A stretch of 48,734 nt of DNA, filler included, from Streblomastix strix (Eukaryota): assembly GCA_008636045.1 (NCBI GenBank). It is 2 parts of 2 records of this genome, joined end to end, with 100 filler letters (N's around TTAATTAATTAA, not from the genome) between each part and the next. Parts side by side here need not be neighbours in the genome. Positions count along the whole stretch, not along the records: positions 1 to 24,318 come from SNRW01000239.1; 1 more part is not named here. One strand, written 5' to 3'. The translations under genes were made by a program, and so were the position numbers. Positions 6,869 through 35,669 of the stretch are shown in pieces (position 1 is the first letter of the stretch; each line of letters opens with the position of its first letter). Under the pieces are notes generated by a model. That model had not been told where the DNA came from. It ran no database searches and saw only the letters and a list, made by a program, of their open reading frames with translations.

Positions 6869-7800
6869 TAAATGGAAGTGATGAAAATAACTATTACAAA
6901 AAATTATTAAAAATAAATTTATGCAAAATGAATTATTTTGAATTTTAATTTTAAATTAAAATTTTGAGTCAATTTTAGAATATTTTGTAATTATTTTAAA
7001 AAAATGGTATATTAAAATAATTTTAATTTTAAAAATTTGAATAATATATTAAAAATTAGTAAATGAATTGAAAGCAATTGTTTGGGTTTATAGCATTTAT
7101 ATAAAATTAATAAATTAAATTATTATTTAGTATATGCATCATCTACGTAAATTAAAGAATTTCTTTAACTTAATTAAGTGTTTTTATTGAAATTTTGGTA
7201 ATTACCGTTTAACCACACTGTTATTTCTTTTGACTATTCAAATTTTTATTTCTTATTTATATTAGATTTTATTTGACTTTTTATTATTTATTTTAATAAT
7301 TTTTCTCTTTTTGTTGAAATTGGTTTTTCTTTTAATATTTCTATTTTTTTGCCTCAAATTTCTTTCAATATTTGTAATTTACAATTTATTGCGAACTACT
7401 TTTTATCGCTAATTTTTATTTTATTAAATATAAATTAATAATCAATTTTAATATTTATCATCTTCATTTTATCGTTTTTTTCATTTATTAATTCTATTTA
7501 TATATTTATTAGGCATATCTCAATGATGAAGACGACGTATTCAAAGTAATAAAATTTGAAGCGATTCTAGAACCAACAGCAGTGAAAATAAAAGGATCGC
7601 TTTCGTTGGAAAATGGAACAGAATGGAAGAGTAAATGTGCTATTCAATGAGAGTGAAGTTTGATATTTTTTATTATTACAAGTATTATTTATTAATTAAA
7701 TGTCCTTAGGTTGACTTTAAATGTATTTATTTTAATAAATTTAATTATCTTATATTTACTCATTTATTTATTAATATCAATCCATTAACAATACTCAAAG

Positions 7801-8188
7801 AAACATACACAGCGATTATGCATTTGAAGGCGCATATGACTTCATAATCGATATATTATCCAAAGTCAAAGTAGATGGACTTTTCATAGAATACGATGAT
7901 CAAAGATCTGGTGGCTTTGAACCCCTATCTAAAATATTCGCATCGGATCCTACACGAAGAGTAGTTCTCGGACTTGTCACATCCAAATTTGGCAAACTCG
8001 AATCCGAGGATGAACTGATAGCCAGAATTCACGAAGCAGAGAAATGCATCCCTATTGAAAATCTTTGCTTATCAACACAGTGCGGTTTTGCATCTGGCGA
8101 ATAAGGGAACATTATAACTGAAGAGGAACAGTGGGCTAAAATATCTCTGGTTATTAGAGTGGCTAAGAAAGTGTGGAGCGATGCGTGA
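7801..8188 (+). pseudogene. Orphan terminal exon of a cobalamin-independent methionine synthase-like (MetE C-terminal / YxjG-YxjH type) methyltransferase
   Basis: After an AG acceptor at 7800: NIHSDYAFEGAYDF...VDGLFIEYDDQRSGGFEPL...RVVLGLVTSK...RIHEAEKCIPIENLCLSTQCGFASGEQGNIITEEEQWAKI...VWSDA*. No upstream HxC-containing exon recognised nearby. Confidence 0.8.
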
Positions 8189-12894: not shown

Positions 12895-13345
12895 TCATCC
12901 ACTCCTAATCATTGTTCCACTAACTTCACCAATGATTTCAAAGTTTAAAACCTAAGGATCAGGTGCATCATTAAAGGTAAATCTAATGATAGTATCACAT
13001 AGATAGTGCATCTGAGGAGTTATCTAAGCATATGTTGGAGTAGGATATGCTCTTGTTGCTATAAATGAAATGAGATTGTTTTGATTTTCATCTGCAGCGC
13101 GTTTAATCAATTCAGTACCGACAATTCCTTCTGTTAAACTACCTGATAAACTAACTTATATATTAGTTCTAGCACCCATTTTAGACGCATTATATCCTCT
13201 CATGAATGAATCATCAGTTGCCATCTTCCAAGCAAGCATGAATTTATGAGGATAATATACTTTTACTGCTTTAGTTCCTACACATAACGTAGTATTATAG
13301 AAGATATTCTCTGTTTCTTAGATATTACCAGTCTTCCTATAGTAA
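12895..13345 (-). pseudogene. C-terminal fragment of a probable major capsid protein
   Basis: VYYPHKFMLAWKMATDDSFMRGYNASKMGARTNIQVSLSGSL...ITPQMHYLCDTIIRFTFNDAPDPQVLNFEIIGEVSGTMIRSG*. No start; alternating beta-strand pattern; sits in the morphogenesis module. Capsid identity is inferred, not proven. Confidence 0.55.
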
Positions 13346-13429
13346 AACTAGTATCAATGGATAATATCATTTAATTACTATTTATCATCTACTCCAAATA
13401 ATTATCGTTATTATTGATTAATAATAATG

Positions 13430-15275
13430 GGTAATTTTAACCTGTTAGTTATATCTCAAATTAGGCATTTCTGAATGTCTTTCTTCCATTAATCGTTTAA
13501 TCAGTTCCAACATTAACTAACTCATTATTATTAAACGTTATTTTTGAACTATCACTATTAATACTTAAACCAACACTATGATCATCTTGTCGTAGAGATG
13601 ATGGGGTTATTGTAAGCGCTTTATCATTTGTTTTACTTATTTCCCATTAACCTGCTTGAGTTGTATTTATAGCCGAAGTATCACATTCTAAATATAATGC
13701 TGAATAATTACTATAATTTTCTATTCTAATGACATTATTATATGTATTATAACTTCGATTCATTGGATTAACTTATATCATATTATTTATTATTCCACCA
13801 TTAGCTAAATCAGAAGTAATTGGTATTTATGTTTATGATCCTGTGATTGAGGTGACAATATCTTATGTTAAAATCTCAGTAACTCGAGTAGCCCAATATG
13901 TACTTTATTTACTTACAGTAACAGTTACCCCTCCGCTACCGGTCATCATATGAATCAATCCAGTATATACAGCAGAAGAATAAGAACCTGTATGTGTATG
14001 TAATATCTAATCAACTCCATAGTATATATTATATCCAGTTTATACATATTATGGAGCAGTAATATTGCCATAAAGCTCAACGATTCCATTAACGGTATAA
14101 TTAGGAACCAAATCAATAGTTTACATAGCGTTTGTATTACATGTTACTTAGAATTATATATAAGGTGCTCTTGTACTTGTTCCTGTAGGAAATACACATA
14201 ATCAAATATATCCACCGGATCCACTAGAATATTATCTTGATAATTTTGAATCTATCGTTGTTGTATCACCATTGGCGCATAACACTTCTGAAGCAGTTCC
14301 ACCTGATTTAATAAATTTAGTAGCAGTAATGTTACCATCATAAGTCAATTGCTATGGATGAATATGATCATGTCTTGAATAATATGCTGAAGTACCATTA
14401 TTTCCAACTCCATTAACTATAGGTACAATTGAAGCATTAGTTTAGACATTATTAGGATGAGAATGATCATTTCTAGCGTAAGAATCAACTGTACTATAAG
14501 ATCCTTCTGCTGAATCAATATTAGGAATAGTATCTACAGTCTGAATTGGATGTTAATGATCCGATCTTGCATAAGAACTAGCTTATCCAACAGTACCAAC
14601 TGATGTATCTTTACTTGATAAAACATCAGAAACTTATAGTGGATGCTTATGATCTCCTCGTGAATACTCATTTGAAGTTCTTGCAACTCCAGTTCCACTA
14701 TCAACTAATGGAATAGCATCACTTGCAGGAATTACTTAATCAGGAACTGGATCTCCACTGTTATACCAATTCTAATCATACATCCATACTGTTTCACTTT
14801 CAGCAGAGAAAGCAAAGTCACCATTGGCAGAGTTTTCTAATTATTATATATCTGTGTTCAATAAATAATACCTTCTAAAATGTGTTTATCTATTAAGTTC
14901 ATCATTAGTTACATTAATTTATTATTACAAACCACCAATATCTTAAGTTGCAGTTCCCAAAGTCTATTATAATACGTTAACTTCTTATTCTAACGTAGTT
15001 ATTTTACCTAAGAAATCACTATTTAATAAATTTATATTTTTCAATGTCATTATACCATTAGTTTCCAGTTTCATAGCATAATTCAATGGATTATCTATTG
15101 GTGCATATATTAATGAGTTTTAATCATCAACTGTCAATGATTATTCACTTCCTAATAATTAATTATTGGAACTTGATGATTTTTTTGAATACTGTATCAA
15201 ATATTGAAAATCTGATTAAATCAAAGAACGAATAACTTAGATCTATTATTTACTCAAGGTTTTAGCTAATGTCAT
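13430..15275 (-). pseudogene. Long fibre/spike protein with phage tail-fibre-type repeats; internal stop, 3' end lost
   Basis: Coiled coil, then four repeats YSRGDHKHP / YARSDHQHP / YARNDHSHP / YSRHDHIHP, then KFIKSGGTASEVLCANGD, a beta-rich region and VNVGTDQTINGRKTF. In-frame TGA at 14202-14204. Confidence 0.75.
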
Positions 15276-15313: not shown

Positions 15314-16327
15314 TCATTGATTCTTTAGTATTTCATATTTACTCTACCATTTATTAAGTATTATGAATTCATATTTATTAAGAGTTCCATACAGTAACAT
15401 AAACTCATCAAAGTCAAGATTCTATATAGAATTCTCTTCATAGGCTTGTTTTAAATCACTTTCAGATAGATTAACTCCTAAACACATGACATGAGATAAA
15501 ATTCTAGCAGTTTTAAATAAGTAACTTGGACGTTAAGCAACAAAGAAAACTGAATTTTTACTAAGTCTACTGTCGGAAACTAAATGTGTTATTGTCTTAG
15601 CTAATCCTGAAGAGAATCTTTAAATATCAGCATTACTTCCTATTTCATCAAATATTAACAATGAATTTAATAATAAACTATGGAATAATATAGTAATCTT
15701 CGTTACTTTTAATTCTGCATCACCATCATCTTATGATATTTCTATTTTTCTCTCGAATTACACGTTATGAATCATTGCAGGAATAGTAAATCTCATTATC
15801 ATTGTTGGAACACTATATTTAGTTATGATATTAATATATTCTTAACGAAATATCTATGCAATTCTTCTTGCATAATCCTTAGGTTTTTCTAATTATTATT
15901 CAGGTGTTGCTGAAGCAATTCGTGATGGATTCTATTTTATTGGATTCATTATTAATATTCTTTCTTTCATTCTCTATATATAATCAGATTTGTACGATAC
16001 ATTTACTTCACTTAACTTCCAATATGTATATATTTCATTAACTTAATATTTAATTTCATCAAATTAAGGAAATAAATACATAGCTTCATCGTATGTTATA
16101 TTTGTTAAGATTATATTCTTAGAGTTTAGATTCAATGCCATAGTCTCATCAGCTCCAAAATTAGAGAAATATAAAATGAATGGATTGATTTTTTATTTGT
16201 AGATTACTATCAGTTTACTTAATAAAGTTGTTTTACCTGAATCAACTGCACCAACTATATAATGATTCTCATTGATTAAAAATAATGAATTCCTTGTCAA
16301 TGGCTTGGTTTTATATTCATCTAACAT
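15314..16327 (-). CDS. A32/FtsK-HerA-type genome packaging ATPase
   Basis: Walker A YIVGAVDSGKTT, Walker B LLIFDE, then DSR...VFFVAQR. Span is 338 codons. An upstream ATG at 16373 is one base out of frame. Confidence 0.85.
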
Positions 16328-16396: not shown

Positions 16397-16780
16397 ATGT
16401 TAAATATTATTATAATAATAATAAATTCTATATTTTATGGAGTTAACTTCATTGTATCTATAATTTCTCTATCAATTCCTAAGTAATTAACAGATATTAT
16501 TGCATTAATAAAATAATTATGGAGTTATTTTGATGTGATTCCAGTTCCTATTAATATAATTATATATATATTTCAGTTTGTTTATCGTCGAAGAAAGAAA
16601 TTAAAAATGGAATCATAGGAGAAACCAAGATATTTTCATTGGTTTAAGTATTCAAATGAATAAACTGAGGATTTCATTAAAGAAGCGATTGAAAAATAAG
16701 ATGAGGAACTTGCAAAGTAGTGGAGATATATATTGTATTTAAAGTTATTGAATCTTAAGACATATGATAATGGTAATTGA
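16397..16780 (+). CDS. Small viral membrane protein (two hydrophobic segments followed by RRRKK), 127 aa
   Basis: MLNIIIIIINSIFYGVNFIVSIISLSIP...VIPVPINIIIYIFQFVYRRRKKLKMESQEKPRYFHWF...; intact ORF under TAR=Gln, divergent from the ATPase. Confidence 0.6.
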
Positions 16781-16814
16781 AATGTAATATATCTTCAATT
16801 TTATTTGTAATTTA

Positions 16815-17588
16815 TCGACTAGCCGATTAATTATGAATTGCATATGAATCACAAACTTAAACACAAAAATCCTTAGATAAATTAATCTAACACATTGTAT
16901 TTATTATAACATTACCATTAGAATTAATATAGCAATCTATAGGAATTGAACCAGTCCAAACTATTGGATAATCATATACTCTTTACGCAAACATAACAGC
17001 ATTTAACGGTATGTTAGTTGGTGTTCCACTGAATTTTGGTTTTATGACATTATCAACGATTGAGAATAAAGTATATGCAGATTAACAAAGAGTATTTTGA
17101 TCTGAGTGAGTTATTTGCATTGAAAGATATACTCTACTATTTTATGTTGTTAGTGTACCCCATACTCGTGTTTCATACATTCCATAAGCAATAGCTGAAT
17201 AACGTGCGTCTTCAATAGGTTGATAATCTAATTTATCTTTATCAATAGTATCTCCATTAGCTAATAATATTTAATTACTTGTTCCACCTAATTTAATGAT
17301 TCTATTAGCTGTGATAGGCTATGTAAATGATTTGATTCCAGTAATAACTTATGCTGTATTCAATGTTACAAAGTCAGATATTGATTATTTCTTAAAGAAT
17401 TAACTAAAGTAAGTAAAATATTTTATTATTTCACTATCTATTTATTAAGTTATTTATTTTTACAATTTCTTCAGTGATTCTTTTTCTTATTATTATTTCT
17501 TCATCTTCTCATATTCTGATTTCATTTATTATAGTTCTTCTTCTAATGGATCCTCAAGATCAGTTATTTATTACGCTTCTTATTCCAT
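16815..17588 (-). CDS. Short fibre-like protein (coiled coil + tail-fibre motifs + beta-rich head); 3' end approximate
   Basis: FVTLNTAQVITGIKSFTQPITANRIIKLGGTSNQILLANGD shares both motif types with the long fibre. No TGA where the head appears to end (AGT CGA at ~16815). Confidence 0.7.
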
Positions 17589-19704: not shown

Positions 19705-20877
19705 TCATATTTTAAAATATTATTTATATTTTTCATCTAATTATTGAATATTTTAAGCTTTTAATTTACAATATTATATTGGTAATTCTATTATTTTTAT
19801 ATCATTATATGGCTTTAATAATTTAGCAGATACATTACCATTAGAGTACTTAATAAACTCAGCTAATTCATTGAAATTTCTTCTTTATTTAATGAACTAA
19901 TGACTTGTTTTTGAGTAATCAAGATGAATCATTAGTAAATTTCCTCGTTAGAATGATAATAAGCCTTTGTTTTATTATTATTATTTAATTTCAAATAATT
20001 TATCTTATTATTATCTTATATATTATCCTTCGATGTCTTAGTTGTCATTAGCTTATTATGGTGAGTATTTATTATCATACGCAGAATGAGGAGTCTAATT
20101 ATACATCTTAACCATATGCTACGTCAAATCATTATCAGCGAATTTCTATCAATCATCACTAAATCCATTATGAATCGTTTTAATAACTGAGTCAACAACT
20201 CTATTATGATTAGTGAACTAAGAATCAGTGAAGAATGAGGTTATTTTATGTTCCTAGCAAAATGATTTCAATATACTTCCATTAAATCCCTTCTCACCAT
20301 CACATCTGATATTAGTAACATGATAATTCTTAACTAGTATTTACAAAGCATTCTTAATTTAGCCTGCTGATTTATCTCTTAATGGGAAAACAACGAGATA
20401 TTTAGTGTTGATATTGATACAGAATAGATATATTTAATTTGCTCTGATAATTCGTTCATCCATTGAGACTAAGTCAATTTCCCATGATCCAAGTTTTGGT
20501 GAGAAATATGGACGATTCAGCTTTGATAATGGCTTAATTTAGTAATCAGGAGGAATTTCTTGGATTTACTCAGGTGATTTGCCATGAAGCTTCTTAAAAT
20601 GCTCTATTTTGGATTTGAAGCGATATTTTAGATGGTAAGCGGATTCGGCTTCCCCTTAATTTTTTGCTTGAATTCTTGGTTAGTTACGTAATCTTGGTGC
20701 ACTTGATTAATCATGCTTTAAAATATATTATTTATATAATATCTCCAGTTATTTCTCATTCAATTTTCTCAAGTTTTACTTATTAAAATTCTTAACAAAT
20801 TCTTAATATTTCATTTAATTCATGTTGTGATAGGCGATATATTCAATCCATTAATCTATGTTTTATTAGCGATTCAT
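19705..20877 (-). pseudogene. Retroviral-type (rve) integrase of Polinton type with an internal stop
   Basis: RPYFSPKLGSWEIDL, YLFCININTKYLVVFPL, NIRCDGEKGF, HNRVVDSVIKTI, YNQTPHSAY; 391 codons; in-frame TGA at 20149-20151. Confidence 0.85.
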
Positions 20878-21062
20878 TTTTGAAAATTTAAAAATACCTC
20901 GTTCTAATGGAGGTTTACATATATATACAAAGCTGAAATCTGTAGAGAATTACATCATAAAATGTAGCAAATCTAATATTTATATACAAATCATCGTTTA
21001 TATATGCCTGGATACGTATTAGAAAGAATAGACAATGAGTTTATCAACTGCCAATGATAAAT

Positions 21063-24000
21063 TCAAAGTTATGATTATTCTTAATCAATCTTATATTAAC
21101 TAGATTTCAAACCATGAATATATGGCGCACAAGCTTAATTTCTAAGAACTATTGTTTTTGTGTTGATTTCACTGATTCCTATTCTTTCTTATATGACTTA
21201 TGATAATATTTCTTGTTTATGAATTAAAGATGTGTTATTTACTTTAATTATTATATTTTTATTAATGTTGTCTTCATATTATTATTTATTTATTTATTTA
21301 TTCTATTCTTGTTTTACTCCTTTCAATTTCATGGTTATTTTTTAATTCTTATTATTATCCATATAATAACACTTTGGAGCTAATGCTAAGCAAGTTGTAG
21401 ATTCTGATTCAATATTCCAACCTCATATCTTCTTCTTATCTTAGTAATTATTATCACTCACTGAAGAAAATAGCTATGAATATAATTAATCTCATAGTTT
21501 CTTATCTTTAATTGGCAAACTCTCATGAGCTATAGCTAAGCATAAACTATCAGTATCACCATAGATAACATGAATATAATCCATATCTAAGCAAGGAGTT
21601 AGAAAATTATAGTAAGCATTGAGATAGAAGTACTTTGAGTTATCCATAGTGAAGTAAGCAACTTATAATGGTGTTGAGCATGAACATCTCTTCTTTTCTA
21701 ATTCAACAATGAAGCAATTCTCGGAAATCTACTTATCAGTAAGAAACGTATTGGCCATATGATGTTTCCATAAGATTTTCTTATTGCACAATCTAAAATT
21801 TTTATATTTCTCTGAGTTAATAGAATCATAACCAAATGAGGTATTCACTTCAAGTTTGTTCTTTAATTCTTCACCTTTGTTACTTTCAATATGAGCCTTA
21901 CAACGAAGATTTATATTAGTTTTAACAAATTCATTGAATTAACAGTGTTTATTAAAGACAATAAGCTATTTAATATCATCAGTCACTAAATGAGAACGAT
22001 CTGTAAAAACCACAGATAATAATTATTGAGTTACATATATTCATCATGAGTTGATAATAGCATCATTAATTTCTATTCATCAATATCGTGTTACATATTA
22101 TTTTTTGTCATATTTTCATAAGTATATTCACCAACAGTATCTTTATCAGTGATTATCTTAAGATTTCTCCAAATAACAGGGAAATTAATGAATTCATTAA
22201 TATATTCATTAGAAATATGAGCTTTGACTTTAGCTATGAGTTATTGAACATTCTTGTTTATTATATCTTCATCAGAAGAGAATCTATGCTTATTGAATAT
22301 GTAATTATTTTGCTTATTCTTAGTCATGAATAACATATTTAACTCCTCCTGGCATGTACATCCAATGATTTGTATATGGAATTAGTGGATGTTGTTCTGA
22401 ACTCATACAAGAACCATAGAAACTATTGAAATCTAGACATATTATATTTTCAACGATATGACGAAGCTCATAAGATATTACCTGATTATCTTATAGTTTA
22501 AATTTATGAATTTAAGTCTTTCCAGCGATATTTTCTCTATGAATAACGAATGAATTACCACTTATCATATCATTACGTAATGAATCATATACTTCCTGAT
22601 TAGAAATAGTCATTGGTAAACTATATAATTCACAATATTTACTTAATTATATCATTAATCTCGGTTTCCTTATCTTTATTAGAAGCATACTTATTACAGT
22701 ATAGACAACAAGATAATACATTAGATTTAGTATGAGATTTCTCGTTATCTATTCTATCTAGTGTTGGCTTATTATCATAAGTAAATCTTGCTTAATACAT
22801 GTGACATCGTTATATTAAGAATACATCATGAAAATATTAATAATCATCATAAGTGATGTTATGATCTATTCTTCTCTTCTTTCGTTTATCTTACTCATTG
22901 CATGAATTGACTTTAGATTTCCAGTATTCCATAGATAAATCAAAGGGATTGGCTTTGTCTTCAGGATTATAACATGATGAAATATTAAAATTCTTATAGG
23001 CAAATGCGTATTTCTTTAAGCAAGATAATTTTGTTAACGAAGTATTCTATAGAAGATCTATATGATATGGAATATAATCATTAATTCTATTATCAATTGC
23101 TGATAATAATAGCTATGATTATCGTATTATATCATTGCTTAATTAGACTTTACCAATATCTCTTAGAAAATCATCGAGTTCCATATTAGCACTGACATAG
23201 TTCTTGGCATCAATAAATTTTAGATGAATGGAGTTATCAGTGGGTTTAACAATGATGTGTATTGGACAACTTCTTGAACCTGGTCTATCGATAATTTCAT
23301 TCTTCATTTATTTAATATTCTTAAATACTAGTGTCGTAGCTGATTTCAAACAGTCAAATCCAATAACATGTACTTCATATCGTTAAGGAACTTCATCAGA
23401 GAATTTATTATCTCTACGGATTTACAATGCTTCACTGAACACCTGGTCAAGCAATTTCTCAACGAAATCTTATTAAGAATTATCATATGATATAGTCTTG
23501 ATATAGTTCTTGGCTTTAATAGTTGATGCTACAGCTGTTTGGGTAAGATTTGGATATTAATAACCACGAATTTTCTATAACTCAGTTTAAAACCTGAATG
23601 TTATGTAATATTATGTTGCTTTATGCTCTGATTCTCTATTATGAGCAAGAAGATATCTATACGTCTTATTTGATGTTATTTGTGGAACAAATGGCTTAGG
23701 AAACTTCTTTAAAGTAATATATTTCTTGATTTAACCATTGTTTTTCTGGCGTTCTTTCATATGAGTATCCATTTTTCTCTTTGAATTATTATTAGGATCC
23801 TTGGTGAATACTGCGTGATTATTACATATAGGACAGATTTTAATACCTAATAGCTTCTCAACACTAATAATATACCTGAGATATTGGTTTCCGTCATCAT
23901 TGTTAAGAAGAAAAATATTATAATGCCTAGCTTATTAGTTATTAATATGATAATTAGTGAATAATTTATAAGGAACTTCAACGTTCTTATCATCATACTC

Positions 24001-24318
24001 ATAGCAATTGATATTGATATTGAATTTCTAACATACTTTCAATGAATCATCCCAATTAAATCCATGATAATTCTTAAGAAATTCACGTTGATTTTCTTTC
24101 TTGACACTGTAGAATTCAAAAAATAATCTTTTACCTTCAGCATTTCTTGAATTACGATCAATTTCAATTCCTTTTGAATCAGGCTTTGTTATACAAGTTA
24201 GATTATACCAGAAGCAAGTATTATAATCATCATCACAATGAATATATTTTATGATACTCTTCTTATTTTTATGAATCTTAATGAGCTCTTCCATATTCTT
24301 TCCAGGAAATGGTAATCT
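21063..24318 (-). pseudogene. Protein-primed family B DNA polymerase, degenerate, 5'-partial
   Basis: CLDFNSFYGS (motif A), KNKLEVNTSFGYD (motif B), IYGDTDS (motif C), ALAPKCY, KLKGV; upstream CPIC..H finger and degenerate exonuclease motifs. TGA at 21492 and 21423; frameshift ~22005. Confidence 0.9.
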
Positions 24319-24418
24319 NNNNNNNNNNNNNNNNNNNNNNNNNNNNNNNNNNNNNNNNNNNNTTAATTAATTAANNNNNNNNNNNNNNNNNNNNNNNNNN
24401 NNNNNNNNNNNNNNNNNN
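24319..24418. other. Artificial 100-nt contig linker (N44-TTAATTAATTAA-N44)
   Basis: Symmetric N runs around a palindromic six-frame-stop 12-mer; genes on both sides are cut. Confidence 0.95.
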
Positions 24419-24509
24419 ACCTTCATTAACAAACAAATTCCATCAAACATTATACCAAAATTTATTATTAATATATATGGACAGTAATTATAAACTATAC
24501 TTATCCAGT

Positions 24510-27993: not shown

Positions 27994-29750
27994 TCATTTT
28001 CCCTATGGATTTGTTGCACCCTCACGCCGAAGTAGAATAGGATTAGGAGCTTTGTTTGCTTAGTGGTAAGTTGATATAATTGATGATTAGGGAAGTTTTA
28101 CCTCAGATGCATTCTATTACATAGCTTGCTGCTTTCGTCGTTTTGTATCCATCGTGTGACATTCCATAGCAAATGGAGGAATTTCTTATGGTTCACACGG
28201 AAGTGGTTCGGTCCAAAAGAATGCATGATTCAGCGCTTCGTGTGCTTTCAATCTCTTTGCTGGGTTTAACTATAATAATTTTTCTAGTAAATCCACTGCA
28301 GAAGGAGGTTAATTCTTGAATCTTTCTGAAATAGTTCTCTATCGGTCTTTATCAGGTTTATATCGAGCAATTGATGCATTAATTCCACTTATTCCCATTC
28401 CAATGTTTTATGCTGCTGCATTTCCACGATAATAAGGTAAGTTCTCCACTTCAGGCCAATCCATTATATTTGGAGTTCCACACAATTTCCAAATTAAATC
28501 AAGTTAATCTGGTTCTTATTAACCTGGCATCAATACAACACCACCTGTTAGAAATTCTCCAAGAATACAACCAACACTCCACATATCAATTGATGAATCA
28601 TATGTCTATGCTCCTAATAGAAGTTCTGGAGGTCTATACCAAAGTGTAATAACCCTTGATGTGAAGATATTATCCCTTCTTTTATCAAATTCTCTGGCTA
28701 ATCCAAAATCTGCTATTTTCAATTCTCCTTTTTGTCCAATAAGAAGATTAGCTCCTTTTAGATCCCTATGAACAATATGATTCTTATGCATAAGTTATAC
28801 TCCTTATAATAACTACTTCATATAACATTTAATTTGTGGAAGTGTCAATCTTCCCGCCTCTGCTTCTAACAAACCTGCTAAATCATGCTCCAAATATTCA
28901 AATACATAATAAATATTTTCTAAATTTCAATTCAATGAGCAGAAGATAAATAAATAACATATAATAAAAAGAATTATTAAATAATAAATTATCTAAAATA
29001 ATTAATAATATACTTCCTTATGTAATAACTCGCTTTAAATCGACTATATTTGGGTGTCTTAACCTTTTTAAAAGCTTTATTTCTCTCACTGCTGTTAAAG
29101 GAAACTATATAAAATAAATACATTCATTGTTATAATTATACTAATTAATAAATAAATACATTCATTGTTATAATTATACTAATTAATAAATAAATACATT
29201 CATTGTTATAATTATACTAATTAATAAATAAATACATTCATTATTATAATTATACTAATTAATAAATAAATACATTCATTATTATAATTATACTAATTAA
29301 TAAATAAATACATTCATTATTATAATTATACTAATTAATAAATAAATACATTCATTATTATAATTATACTAATTAATAAATAAATANNNNNNNNNNTAAT
29401 AAATAAATACATTCATTATTATAATTATACTAATTAATAAATAAATACATTCATTATTATAATTATACTAATTAATAAATAAATACATTCATTATTATAA
29501 TTATACTAATTAATAAATAAATAATATATATTTATACCCCTTCCTTCTCATAGTCCAACTTTGCACGTTTGAGAGCAACCAATTCTCCAGTTGTTGAATC
29601 TCTTGCACGTTAAACATCACCATAAGTTCCTTTGCCAATGTCCTGCCGATCTACATAGTCCATTATGTTACTGCTGCATTTTTATTTCAATTCTCCTGAT
29701 CCAATACTTAATGTAGATGATAAAGTTGTCCCAGGAAAGAAACTAGACAT
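27994..29750 (-). CDS. Cyclin-dependent kinase, CDK9/CDK12/13 (transcriptional CDK) type
   Basis: [62 protein letters not shown]; two introns. Confidence 0.92.
29111..29523. repeat. 38-nt intronic minisatellite, at least 10 copies, with a 10-N gap
   Basis: aataaataaatacattcatt(g/a)ttataattatactaatt repeated inside CDK intron 1. Confidence 0.95.
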
Positions 29751-29803
29751 TTTCTTGATAAATTGATAATATTTAAATTGAATAATTAGTAAGAATTAAA
29801 AAC

Positions 29804-30366
29804 ATAAATAAATATATGGTTAATAAGTTTAAATATATTTTGAAGAAATAAGAAAGAGTGTTTCTATCGGATAAATATAGTTTGTTTTAAGTCGGTTATA
29901 ATTGTCGTTTGATATTGTTAATATTTCATTATATTTAGAAAAGAAATAGAAAGAGTTAGCATGACATAGAATTGGTTAATTGAAATAAAAATATTTTATA
30001 TAGTACACTTTAAACGTGATTTTGTGAAAAAAAACTAAATGTTAAATTAAAATATTAGAAGGATTAAATTGTTGTTGTTAGTAAATAAGAATTAAATATT
30101 GAATATAATAATCTGCAAATATTGTATTTGCAATGTTAGAGTGCAATGATTGGAGTAAATAACATTGAAAAAGCGAATTTGTATGAAAAGAAACGTATTT
30201 ATGTTATAATTATTGGTGTAAATGAAAAAGTATAAATTTAAATTTTATATAAATACAAGAATTTTCTTTAATAGTTCCTAATTATTTATTGATTAACAAT
30301 TGATTTATTAAAACTTTTATTTTTATATTTCCTTATAGTCGAACTTCAATTTATGTTAATCGTGCA

Positions 30367-35064: not shown

Positions 35065-35077
35065 TTACTAAAAAAAT

Positions 35078-35669
35078 ATAAATAAATATATGGTTAATAA
35101 GTTTAAATATATTTTGAAGAAATAAGAAAGAGCGTTTCTATCGGATAAATATAGTTTGTTTTAAGTTTGTTATAATTGTCGTTTGATATTGTTAATATTT
35201 CATTATATTTAGAAAAGAAATAGAAAGAGTTAGCATGACATAGAATTGGTTAATTGAAATAAAAATATTTTATATAGTACACTTTAAACGTGATTTTGTG
35301 AAAAAAAACTAAATGTTAAATTAAAATATTAGAAGGATTAAATTGTTGTTGTTAGTAAATAAGAATTAAATATTGAATATAATAATCTGCAAATATTGTA
35401 TTTGCAATGTTAGAGTGCAATGATTGGAGTAAATAACATTGAAAAAGCGAATTTGTATGAAAAGAAACGTATTTATGTTATAATTATTGGTGTAAATGAA
35501 AATGTATAAATTTAAATTTTATATAAATACAAGAATTTTCTTTAATAGTTCCTAATTATTTATTGATTAACAATTGATTTATTAAAACTTTTATTTTTAT
35601 ATTTCCTTATAGTCAAACTTCAATTTATGTTAATCGTGCATCATTTCTACATTGTTTTATCATCTTTAT
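35078..35669. repeat. 592-bp direct repeat, copy 2
   Basis: Matches 29804-30395. Confidence 0.95.

Follow-up and report, generated by a model that had tools for sequence, protein, structure and literature searches.

A genetic code 6 gene for a predicted fibre with HxH repeats and phage-related modules in an integrated Polinton-like virus of Streblomastix strix

We consider it probable that a minus-strand gene in our window (the whole 48.7-kb stretch of DNA from the termite-gut protist Streblomastix strix that we analyzed) is one broken copy of a multi-copy Polinton-like virus gene for a predicted trimeric capsid fibre, the proximal shaft of which probably entered the virus in a single event, with a tailed phage of gut bacteria as its source. 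The sequence, code usage, breaks, neighbourhood, homology, and tree shape behind this reading were observed directly, and the domain folds are predicted. Phage-like fibres in Polinton-like viruses were known already; new here are an unnamed family of HxH repeats and its close gut-phage relative.

The fibre gene and the element around it

Genetic code and repeats. The window is AT-rich and had almost no ORFs with translation table 11 but long ORFs with table 6, and the fibre frame was open only with NCBI table 6. A table 11 reading of the fibre region was also tried and rejected, as it contained no ORF of at least 60 aa. A DNA pattern scan found the motif Y[SA]RxDHxHP exactly four times in the window, on the minus strand only, whereas none of 100 dinucleotide shuffles contained it. 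An earlier note on this DNA had reported four such repeats 26–30 aa apart. The four motifs were present, but their spacing was 93, 93, and 99 nt, or 31, 31, and 33 aa, and the commonest spacings among homologues were also 31 aa (142 intervals) and then 33 aa (27 intervals). The eight repeat histidines were 96–99% conserved in an alignment of 92 sequences. The other motifs of the earlier note, FIKSGG...LCANGD and DQTINGRKTF, were both recovered in the repeat frame: FIKSGG from 14315, CANGD from 14279, and QTINGRKTF from 13499 shared one frame with the HxH repeats, starting at 15275 on the minus strand. Over its full length this frame had 82% identity to homologue P0007 and 68% to P0009.

Breaks in this copy. 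The gene had been drawn as one stretch from 13430 to 15275, which did not hold, since an in-frame TGA interrupts it and homology reaches to ~13349 (Table 1). Among the 120 listed homologues, 96 read through a motif matching the TGA site and 24 lacked the motif. Residues 1–651 of the 778 in P0009 aligned from 15269 down to 13335, and positions 12898–13350 were 93% identical to the final 151 residues of P0130, which UniRef names "Major capsid protein". Fibre homology thus switched straight to a capsid fragment at ~13349, with the fibre end and most of the capsid gene missing as assembled. Because of the in-frame TGA and the fibre frame running into the end of the capsid gene, the copy is defective as assembled and cannot give a whole fibre or capsid product. 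Contigs from sequencing runs X1–X3 matched the copy exactly at 13842–13922 and 13903–14066 at a depth of ~15; further copies of the capsid gene in these runs departed from the window sequence at 13330–13349. The contig pieces listed for runs X1–X3 (387 further pieces lie beyond these) included none that bridged the junction or resolved the TGA. Stops and junctions in such elements can be assembly artefacts, according to the available text of PMC10120064.

Table 1 Coordinates of the fibre gene, its parts, and its neighbours in the window
Feature	Position	Strand	Basis or remark
Fibre gene 5' part, 357 codons, code 6	14205..15275	-	N-terminal region, coiled coil, knob, four HxH repeats, FIKSGG module
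Coiled-coil helix (predicted; bounds approximate)	14889..15035	-	Mapped from helix 14–62, AF2 model of P0007
89-aa module, small beta knob and first HxH repeat	14637..14903	-	Common to phage-type proteins
Four 31–33-aa repeats ending Y[SA]RxDHxHP, predicted metal-binding shaft	14352..14738	-	Pattern scan, His conservation
Y[SA]RxDHxHP motifs	14641–14666, 14548–14573, 14455–14480, 14356–14381	-	Pattern scan
ITATKFIKSGG...CANGD module	14262..14335	-	Found in phage fibre-like proteins too
In-frame TGA interrupting fibre gene	14202..14204	-	Frame translation
Predicted beta-sandwich, candidate binding domain, approximate bounds, spans TGA	13815..14246	-	pLDDT ~90, WceF match
Fibre gene 3' part, including DQTINGRKTF (13473–13502), ends early at ~13349	13349..14201	-	Frame and homologue alignment
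Major capsid protein gene, last ~150 codons, abuts truncated fibre gene	12895..13350	-	93% identity to P0130
P-loop ATPase, likely packaging ATPase	15314..16327	-	Walker A GAVDSGKT; putative packaging role from context
Second fibre-like ORF, IKxGG..LANGD and QxITGxKxF modules	16674..17588	-	46% over 28 aa to P0007, E 8e-5
ORF resembling a DDE integrase, apparently cut short	20149..20994	-	IS30 transposase, weak match (E 0.003)
Fragmented family-B DNA polymerase-like gene with HNH-like stretch	21065..24450	-	Motifs in different frames

The element. A query with the fibre read through its stop had 357 matches, and all 120 of those listed were labelled S. strix, including one database entry (P0095) that already carried the label "Tail fiber protein". 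The capsid query had 81 matches, all S. strix, many of them 620–650 aa long. When 69 of the 120 fibre entries were set against 58 of the 81 capsid entries, 10 fell on equally long contigs, eight of these within two locus tags. The element has two features of a Polinton-like virus, namely a major capsid gene (by sequence match) and multi-copy integration in a eukaryotic genome, and judged from its sequence it is an integrated capsid-encoding Polinton-like virus of S. strix. The eukaryotic host and integrating virus proposed earlier agree with the S. strix labels, the capsid gene, and the code 6 context. Endogenous code 6 viruses of S. strix, in the Metamonada MCP group, are described in the accessible portion of PMC10120064.

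Long low-complexity code 6 ORFs flanked the element on both sides. The 25 longest of 439 inverted repeats included no pair placed at the two ends of the element, one of which has N gaps, and no penton (minor capsid) gene was recognised in this copy. Summed contig depth in run X1 rose from ~50 to tens of thousands across 11.9–24.3 kb, a sum that does not represent copy number. The ATPase had only weak generic Pfam matches (AAA_14, E 8e-4, below cut-off). The polymerase-like gene carried DFNSFYG, YGDTDS, and KLKGV, which we take to be PolB motifs, in separate frames. Its N-terminal ORF (22633–24300, minus strand) contained an HNH endonuclease-like stretch (PHROG 3118, E 1e-7). The second fibre-like ORF shares short linker modules with the main fibre and has another C-terminal domain; the P0035 gene model fuses both.

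Phage relatives of the shaft and probable direction of transfer

Long relatives in gut-type prophages. A profile search of 1.84 billion protein representatives returned 2604 matches at E ≤ 1e-3. The best non-S. strix matches among the top 150 were proteins of 945–1687 aa with profile E values of 1e-174 to 5e-75, which reflect scores added over repeated modules, as these proteins matched profile positions ~20–190 repeatedly. Three of the 10 long relatives looked up had taxon names, Tannerellaceae and Bacteroides sp. Pairwise, the window protein had 47% identity to long relatives in a 97-aa alignment and 37% in one of 145 aa. Set against 62 distinct modules from the phage side, the 89-aa module of knob and first repeat was 30–53% identical (mean 43%), compared to a mean of 18% and a maximum of 27% in the shuffled control. 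In Bacteroides contigs L135–L137 the relative sits amid portal, head-maturation protease, tape measure, holin, and amidase genes, and in viral contig L131 it adjoins baseplate hub and tail-collar fibre genes. The modules are therefore phage-type, being homologous to proteins within phage structural operons. The search against phage proteins that the earlier note called for thus found homologues, the nearest named ones in prophages of gut-type bacteria. As a side observation, the fibre-like gene in the L135–L140 Bacteroides prophages has capsid-region genes on one side and the portal gene on the other, with several tandem related ORFs downstream in L139.

Proteins P0269, P0278, and P0298 (L135–L140) share the S. 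strix arrangement of a coiled coil followed by a knob and then a DHxHP repeat, with 37–47% identity. The Bacteroides/Tannerellaceae proteins repeat the unit of coil, knob, and single repeat several times, and Pfam Phage_tail_C occurred above cut-off at the C-terminal end of three of the 14 long relatives scanned, whereas in the S. strix protein a single knob is followed by four tandem repeats, and its C-terminal half has no counterpart in these relatives. Coiled coils on the phage side matched P22 gp26 and reovirus sigma-1, both of which are trimeric.

Spread of the repeat. The bare repeat occurred in at least 123 IMG/VR stretches by motif scan, a set selected on the motif itself, in which unselected upstream positions still agreed (P 88%, G 89%). 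Several repeat-bearing IMG/VR ORFs matched PHROG tail-fibre families elsewhere in the same protein. Searches of Pfam, PHROGs, NCBIfam, and PDB sequences with the window protein or family profile gave only coiled-coil matches. The HxH repeat, which has no Pfam match, is thus definable as a new family, a widespread fibre repeat without a Pfam, PHROG, or NCBIfam match here. In tblastn searches of 50,697 GenBank phage records, P0001 had no match at E ≤ 0.01, the repeats gave three chance-level rows (E 5–10), and P0326 gave one short match. Among other proteins with the repeat, P0348 contained 26 HxH-type motifs, mostly 31 aa apart, and L065:3426-8519 (minus strand) encoded a long HxH array protein with seven pattern matches.

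Profiles of the sandwich and the distal segment found nothing among 7332 phage-side ORFs. The earlier proposal of a phage-derived receptor-binding fibre was therefore supported for the shaft, which is phage-related, but the candidate binding domain had no sequence relative among those ORFs.

Tree and distribution. We built an unrooted tree from 89 columns of 104 modules, 42 of S. strix type (reduced from 121 at <78% identity) and 62 from the phage side. The S. strix rows formed one side of a branch with support of 100/85 and were not nested inside a phage clade. Since these modules form a single branch, one acquisition fits. Bacteroidota and Bacillota were both represented in the contig labels of the phage-side modules. 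Among the best 150 profile matches, all 10 of the divergent unlabelled short matches that were looked up came from S. strix, and the rest were assumed to. From this distribution, with the module spread over Bacteroidota and Bacillota and found among eukaryotes in S. strix only, we infer transfer from phage to virus; the direction is read from distribution only because the tree is unrooted and without nesting. The fibre shaft was, going by these sequences, likely borrowed from a bacteriophage.

It is unlikely, in our estimate, that the gene encodes a fibre with an old and promiscuous module received through other eukaryotic viruses or unsampled phages, so that the likeness to Bacteroidales would be no mark of the donor. 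Such a history would suit a bare repeat spread over many unrelated viral contigs, a module found in contigs binned as Clostridia too, S. strix modules that are sister to the sampled phage set instead of nested in it, and a FIKSGG module whose matches were other fibre-like phage proteins, among them one that carries an S74 chaperone domain. It fits poorly with a knob and first repeat that stay contiguous and collinear at up to 53–56% identity, and the best 150 profile matches showed no eukaryote besides S. strix, to which all 10 of the divergent short matches looked up were traced.

Opportunity. The nearest named relatives lie in prophages of gut-type Bacteroidales, and it is bacteria of this group that coat Streblomastix cells. 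Filamentous Bacteroidales live on the Streblomastix surface, as the available text of PMC2717939 describes. These surface bacteria offer an opportunity for transfer, although none of the relatives found was shown to be termite-derived. The earlier suggestion of an acquisition in a bacteria-rich gut would fit the gut-type prophages. Fibres of Polinton-like viruses are usually recognised by remote profile matches alone. Here the module retains 30–53% identity to phage proteins, and therefore a transfer from phage to eukaryotic virus is traceable and could be tested with termite-gut viromes.

Predicted folds, function, and variation among copies

Folds. The AF2 monomer model of P0007 had a helix at residues 14–62, a small knob at ~63–110, and an unfolded repeat region at 112–256 (pLDDT <50), followed by a sandwich at ~265–420 (pLDDT ~90) and weaker, beta-rich distal parts (overall pTM 0.41). 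The repeats occupy residues 113–241 of 686, with the sandwich and ~400 more residues after them. The modelled sandwich matched the jelly-roll of WceF (Z 9.7, rmsd 2.9, 124 residues aligned), as did that of a second model (Z 9.2, rmsd 3.6, 131 aligned). WceF came first among the nine best PDB matches, of which seven were phage tailspike, fibre, or baseplate chains and one was a protease; the phage rows after WceF scored Z 5.6–6.3, and the tailspike and fibre domains matched over both models Z 5.6–6.7, a range that common beta-sandwiches reach too. WceF is a homotrimer with its sandwich after a triple beta-helix, according to the accessible part of PMC7949094. The best named BFVD matches were phage tail fibres (E 3e-10 and 9e-10) with low fold-match TM-scores of 0.1–0.4, and the BFVD matches included gp37-labelled entries for which the aligned part is not specified. 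The models thus support a resemblance of the predicted domains to parts of phage fibres and tailspikes.

Proposed assembly. From the models and homology we infer a trimer, bound metal, a place on the virion, and receptor binding. An intact copy would give a homotrimeric capsid fibre of intertwined chains, with the coiled coil and knob at its base, near the capsid. In each of the four repeats, the HxH pairs of the three chains would together place six histidines about a single metal ion on the three-fold axis, in the manner of gp37; these metal sites may stiffen the shaft. The variable beta-sandwich and distal beta-repeats would then bind the host surface.

Variation. Mean pairwise identity in the homologue alignment was 0.63 for the repeat region. 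Head domains were compared among the genomic copies as the earlier note had suggested, and the sandwich was among the most variable parts, with a mean identity of 0.57 and a 5th percentile of 0.17. Repeat-region and sandwich identities were uncorrelated (Spearman −0.06 over 2521 non-independent pairs), while the halves of one segment correlated (0.61 and 0.88). Each of the three main repeat types occurred with both main sandwich types. The uncorrelated similarities suggest, at the level of sequence, that copies exchange modules and that the switch falls close to the FIK module. Part of this mixing could come from chimeric assembly or from faulty gene models. We find it very unlikely that the whole of a more elaborate history applies, in which the virus took its fibre from a Bacteroidales phage, docks on the bacterial coat to reach the protist, and reshuffles shaft and head modules between copies.

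Other roles and origins. The protein would decorate the capsid or form a head fibre, serving the particle structurally or by scavenging metal instead of binding a receptor, in a reading prompted by the Bacteroides prophage homologue, which comes after capsid-region genes and has "minor head protein" as its best PHROG label (E 5e-24), and by Atlas leads, among them clusters of the phage head fibre family PF11133 that scored low (0.75). We judge this very unlikely, given a sandwich that matches tailspike and fibre domains and whose variability across copies fits the expectation for a binding domain. Contamination by bacterial or phage DNA might be imagined for a single-cell assembly labelled metagenome-derived from a host with Bacteroidales symbionts on its surface (PMC2717939, available text), but we reject it as having next to no chance of being correct because it is contradicted by code 6 usage (42 TAA/TAG codons read as Gln in 618 codons, one of them on a Gln kept in 42/62 phage modules) and by gene context (the capsid gene of a eukaryotic virus on one side and an ATPase of the same code on the other, with hundreds of paralogues).

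Relation to described fibres and other sequences in the window

Polinton-like viruses. Returning to the fibre of an integrated Polinton-like virus, the available text of PMC12220804 describes phage-like fibres across this group, and such fibres were found in Gezel-14T particles (10.1101/2022.07.28.501842, in the part available). The accessible text of PMC12724248 reports gp37-like proteins in a virophage, a small eukaryote-associated dsDNA virus. As far as these partial sources go, the published Polinton-like virus fibres are likewise long, modular, and phage-fibre-like and occur in capsid-encoding protist viruses, with Ltf present in purified particles. They differ in domain content: the Pfam domains that the available text gives for them (S74 chaperone, collagen, laminin G3, PTR PF12789, adenovirus fibre) matched none of 72 S. 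strix family members at E ≤ 0.1. PTR (PF12789), from Trichomonas elements, was thus also without a match in the 72, and the same Pfam search gave one weak BppL_N match. Published fibres were usually recognised remotely by profile, whereas the S. strix relatives were found via plain sequence search at 37–47% identity. The S. strix viruses of PMC10120064 share the host, code 6, and the capsid gene, and the words "fiber" and "tail" do not occur in its main text as available. The available text of PMC11161782 likewise contains neither "fiber" nor "fibre". Listings of the literature on Streblomastix polintons and capsids and on polinton fibres included no publication on the S. strix fibre family, although supplements may hold annotations.

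T4 gp37. HxH pairs bind iron in T4 gp37 (PMC11705849, available part), and in its tip, as in the S. strix fibre, they are repeated in a fibrous protein. The S. strix repeats are longer units in a proximal shaft that is followed by a globular sandwich, whereas the gp37 HxH pairs are at the distal tip. Neither T4 gp37 nor its collar domain came up as a sequence match in Pfam, PHROGs, or PDB. The array thus differs from the gp37 tip, which the earlier note named as an example of HxH repeats, in lying in the shaft and not at the distal end.

Elsewhere in the window. A 300-nt direct repeat with 99% identity occurred at 29798–30097 and 35072–35371, 5.3 kb apart, and a 38-nt tandem array with an N gap at 29070–29561. 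Judged by its motif, the plus-strand stretch at 7721–8188 presumably encodes the C-terminal region of a protein resembling cobalamin-independent methionine synthase.
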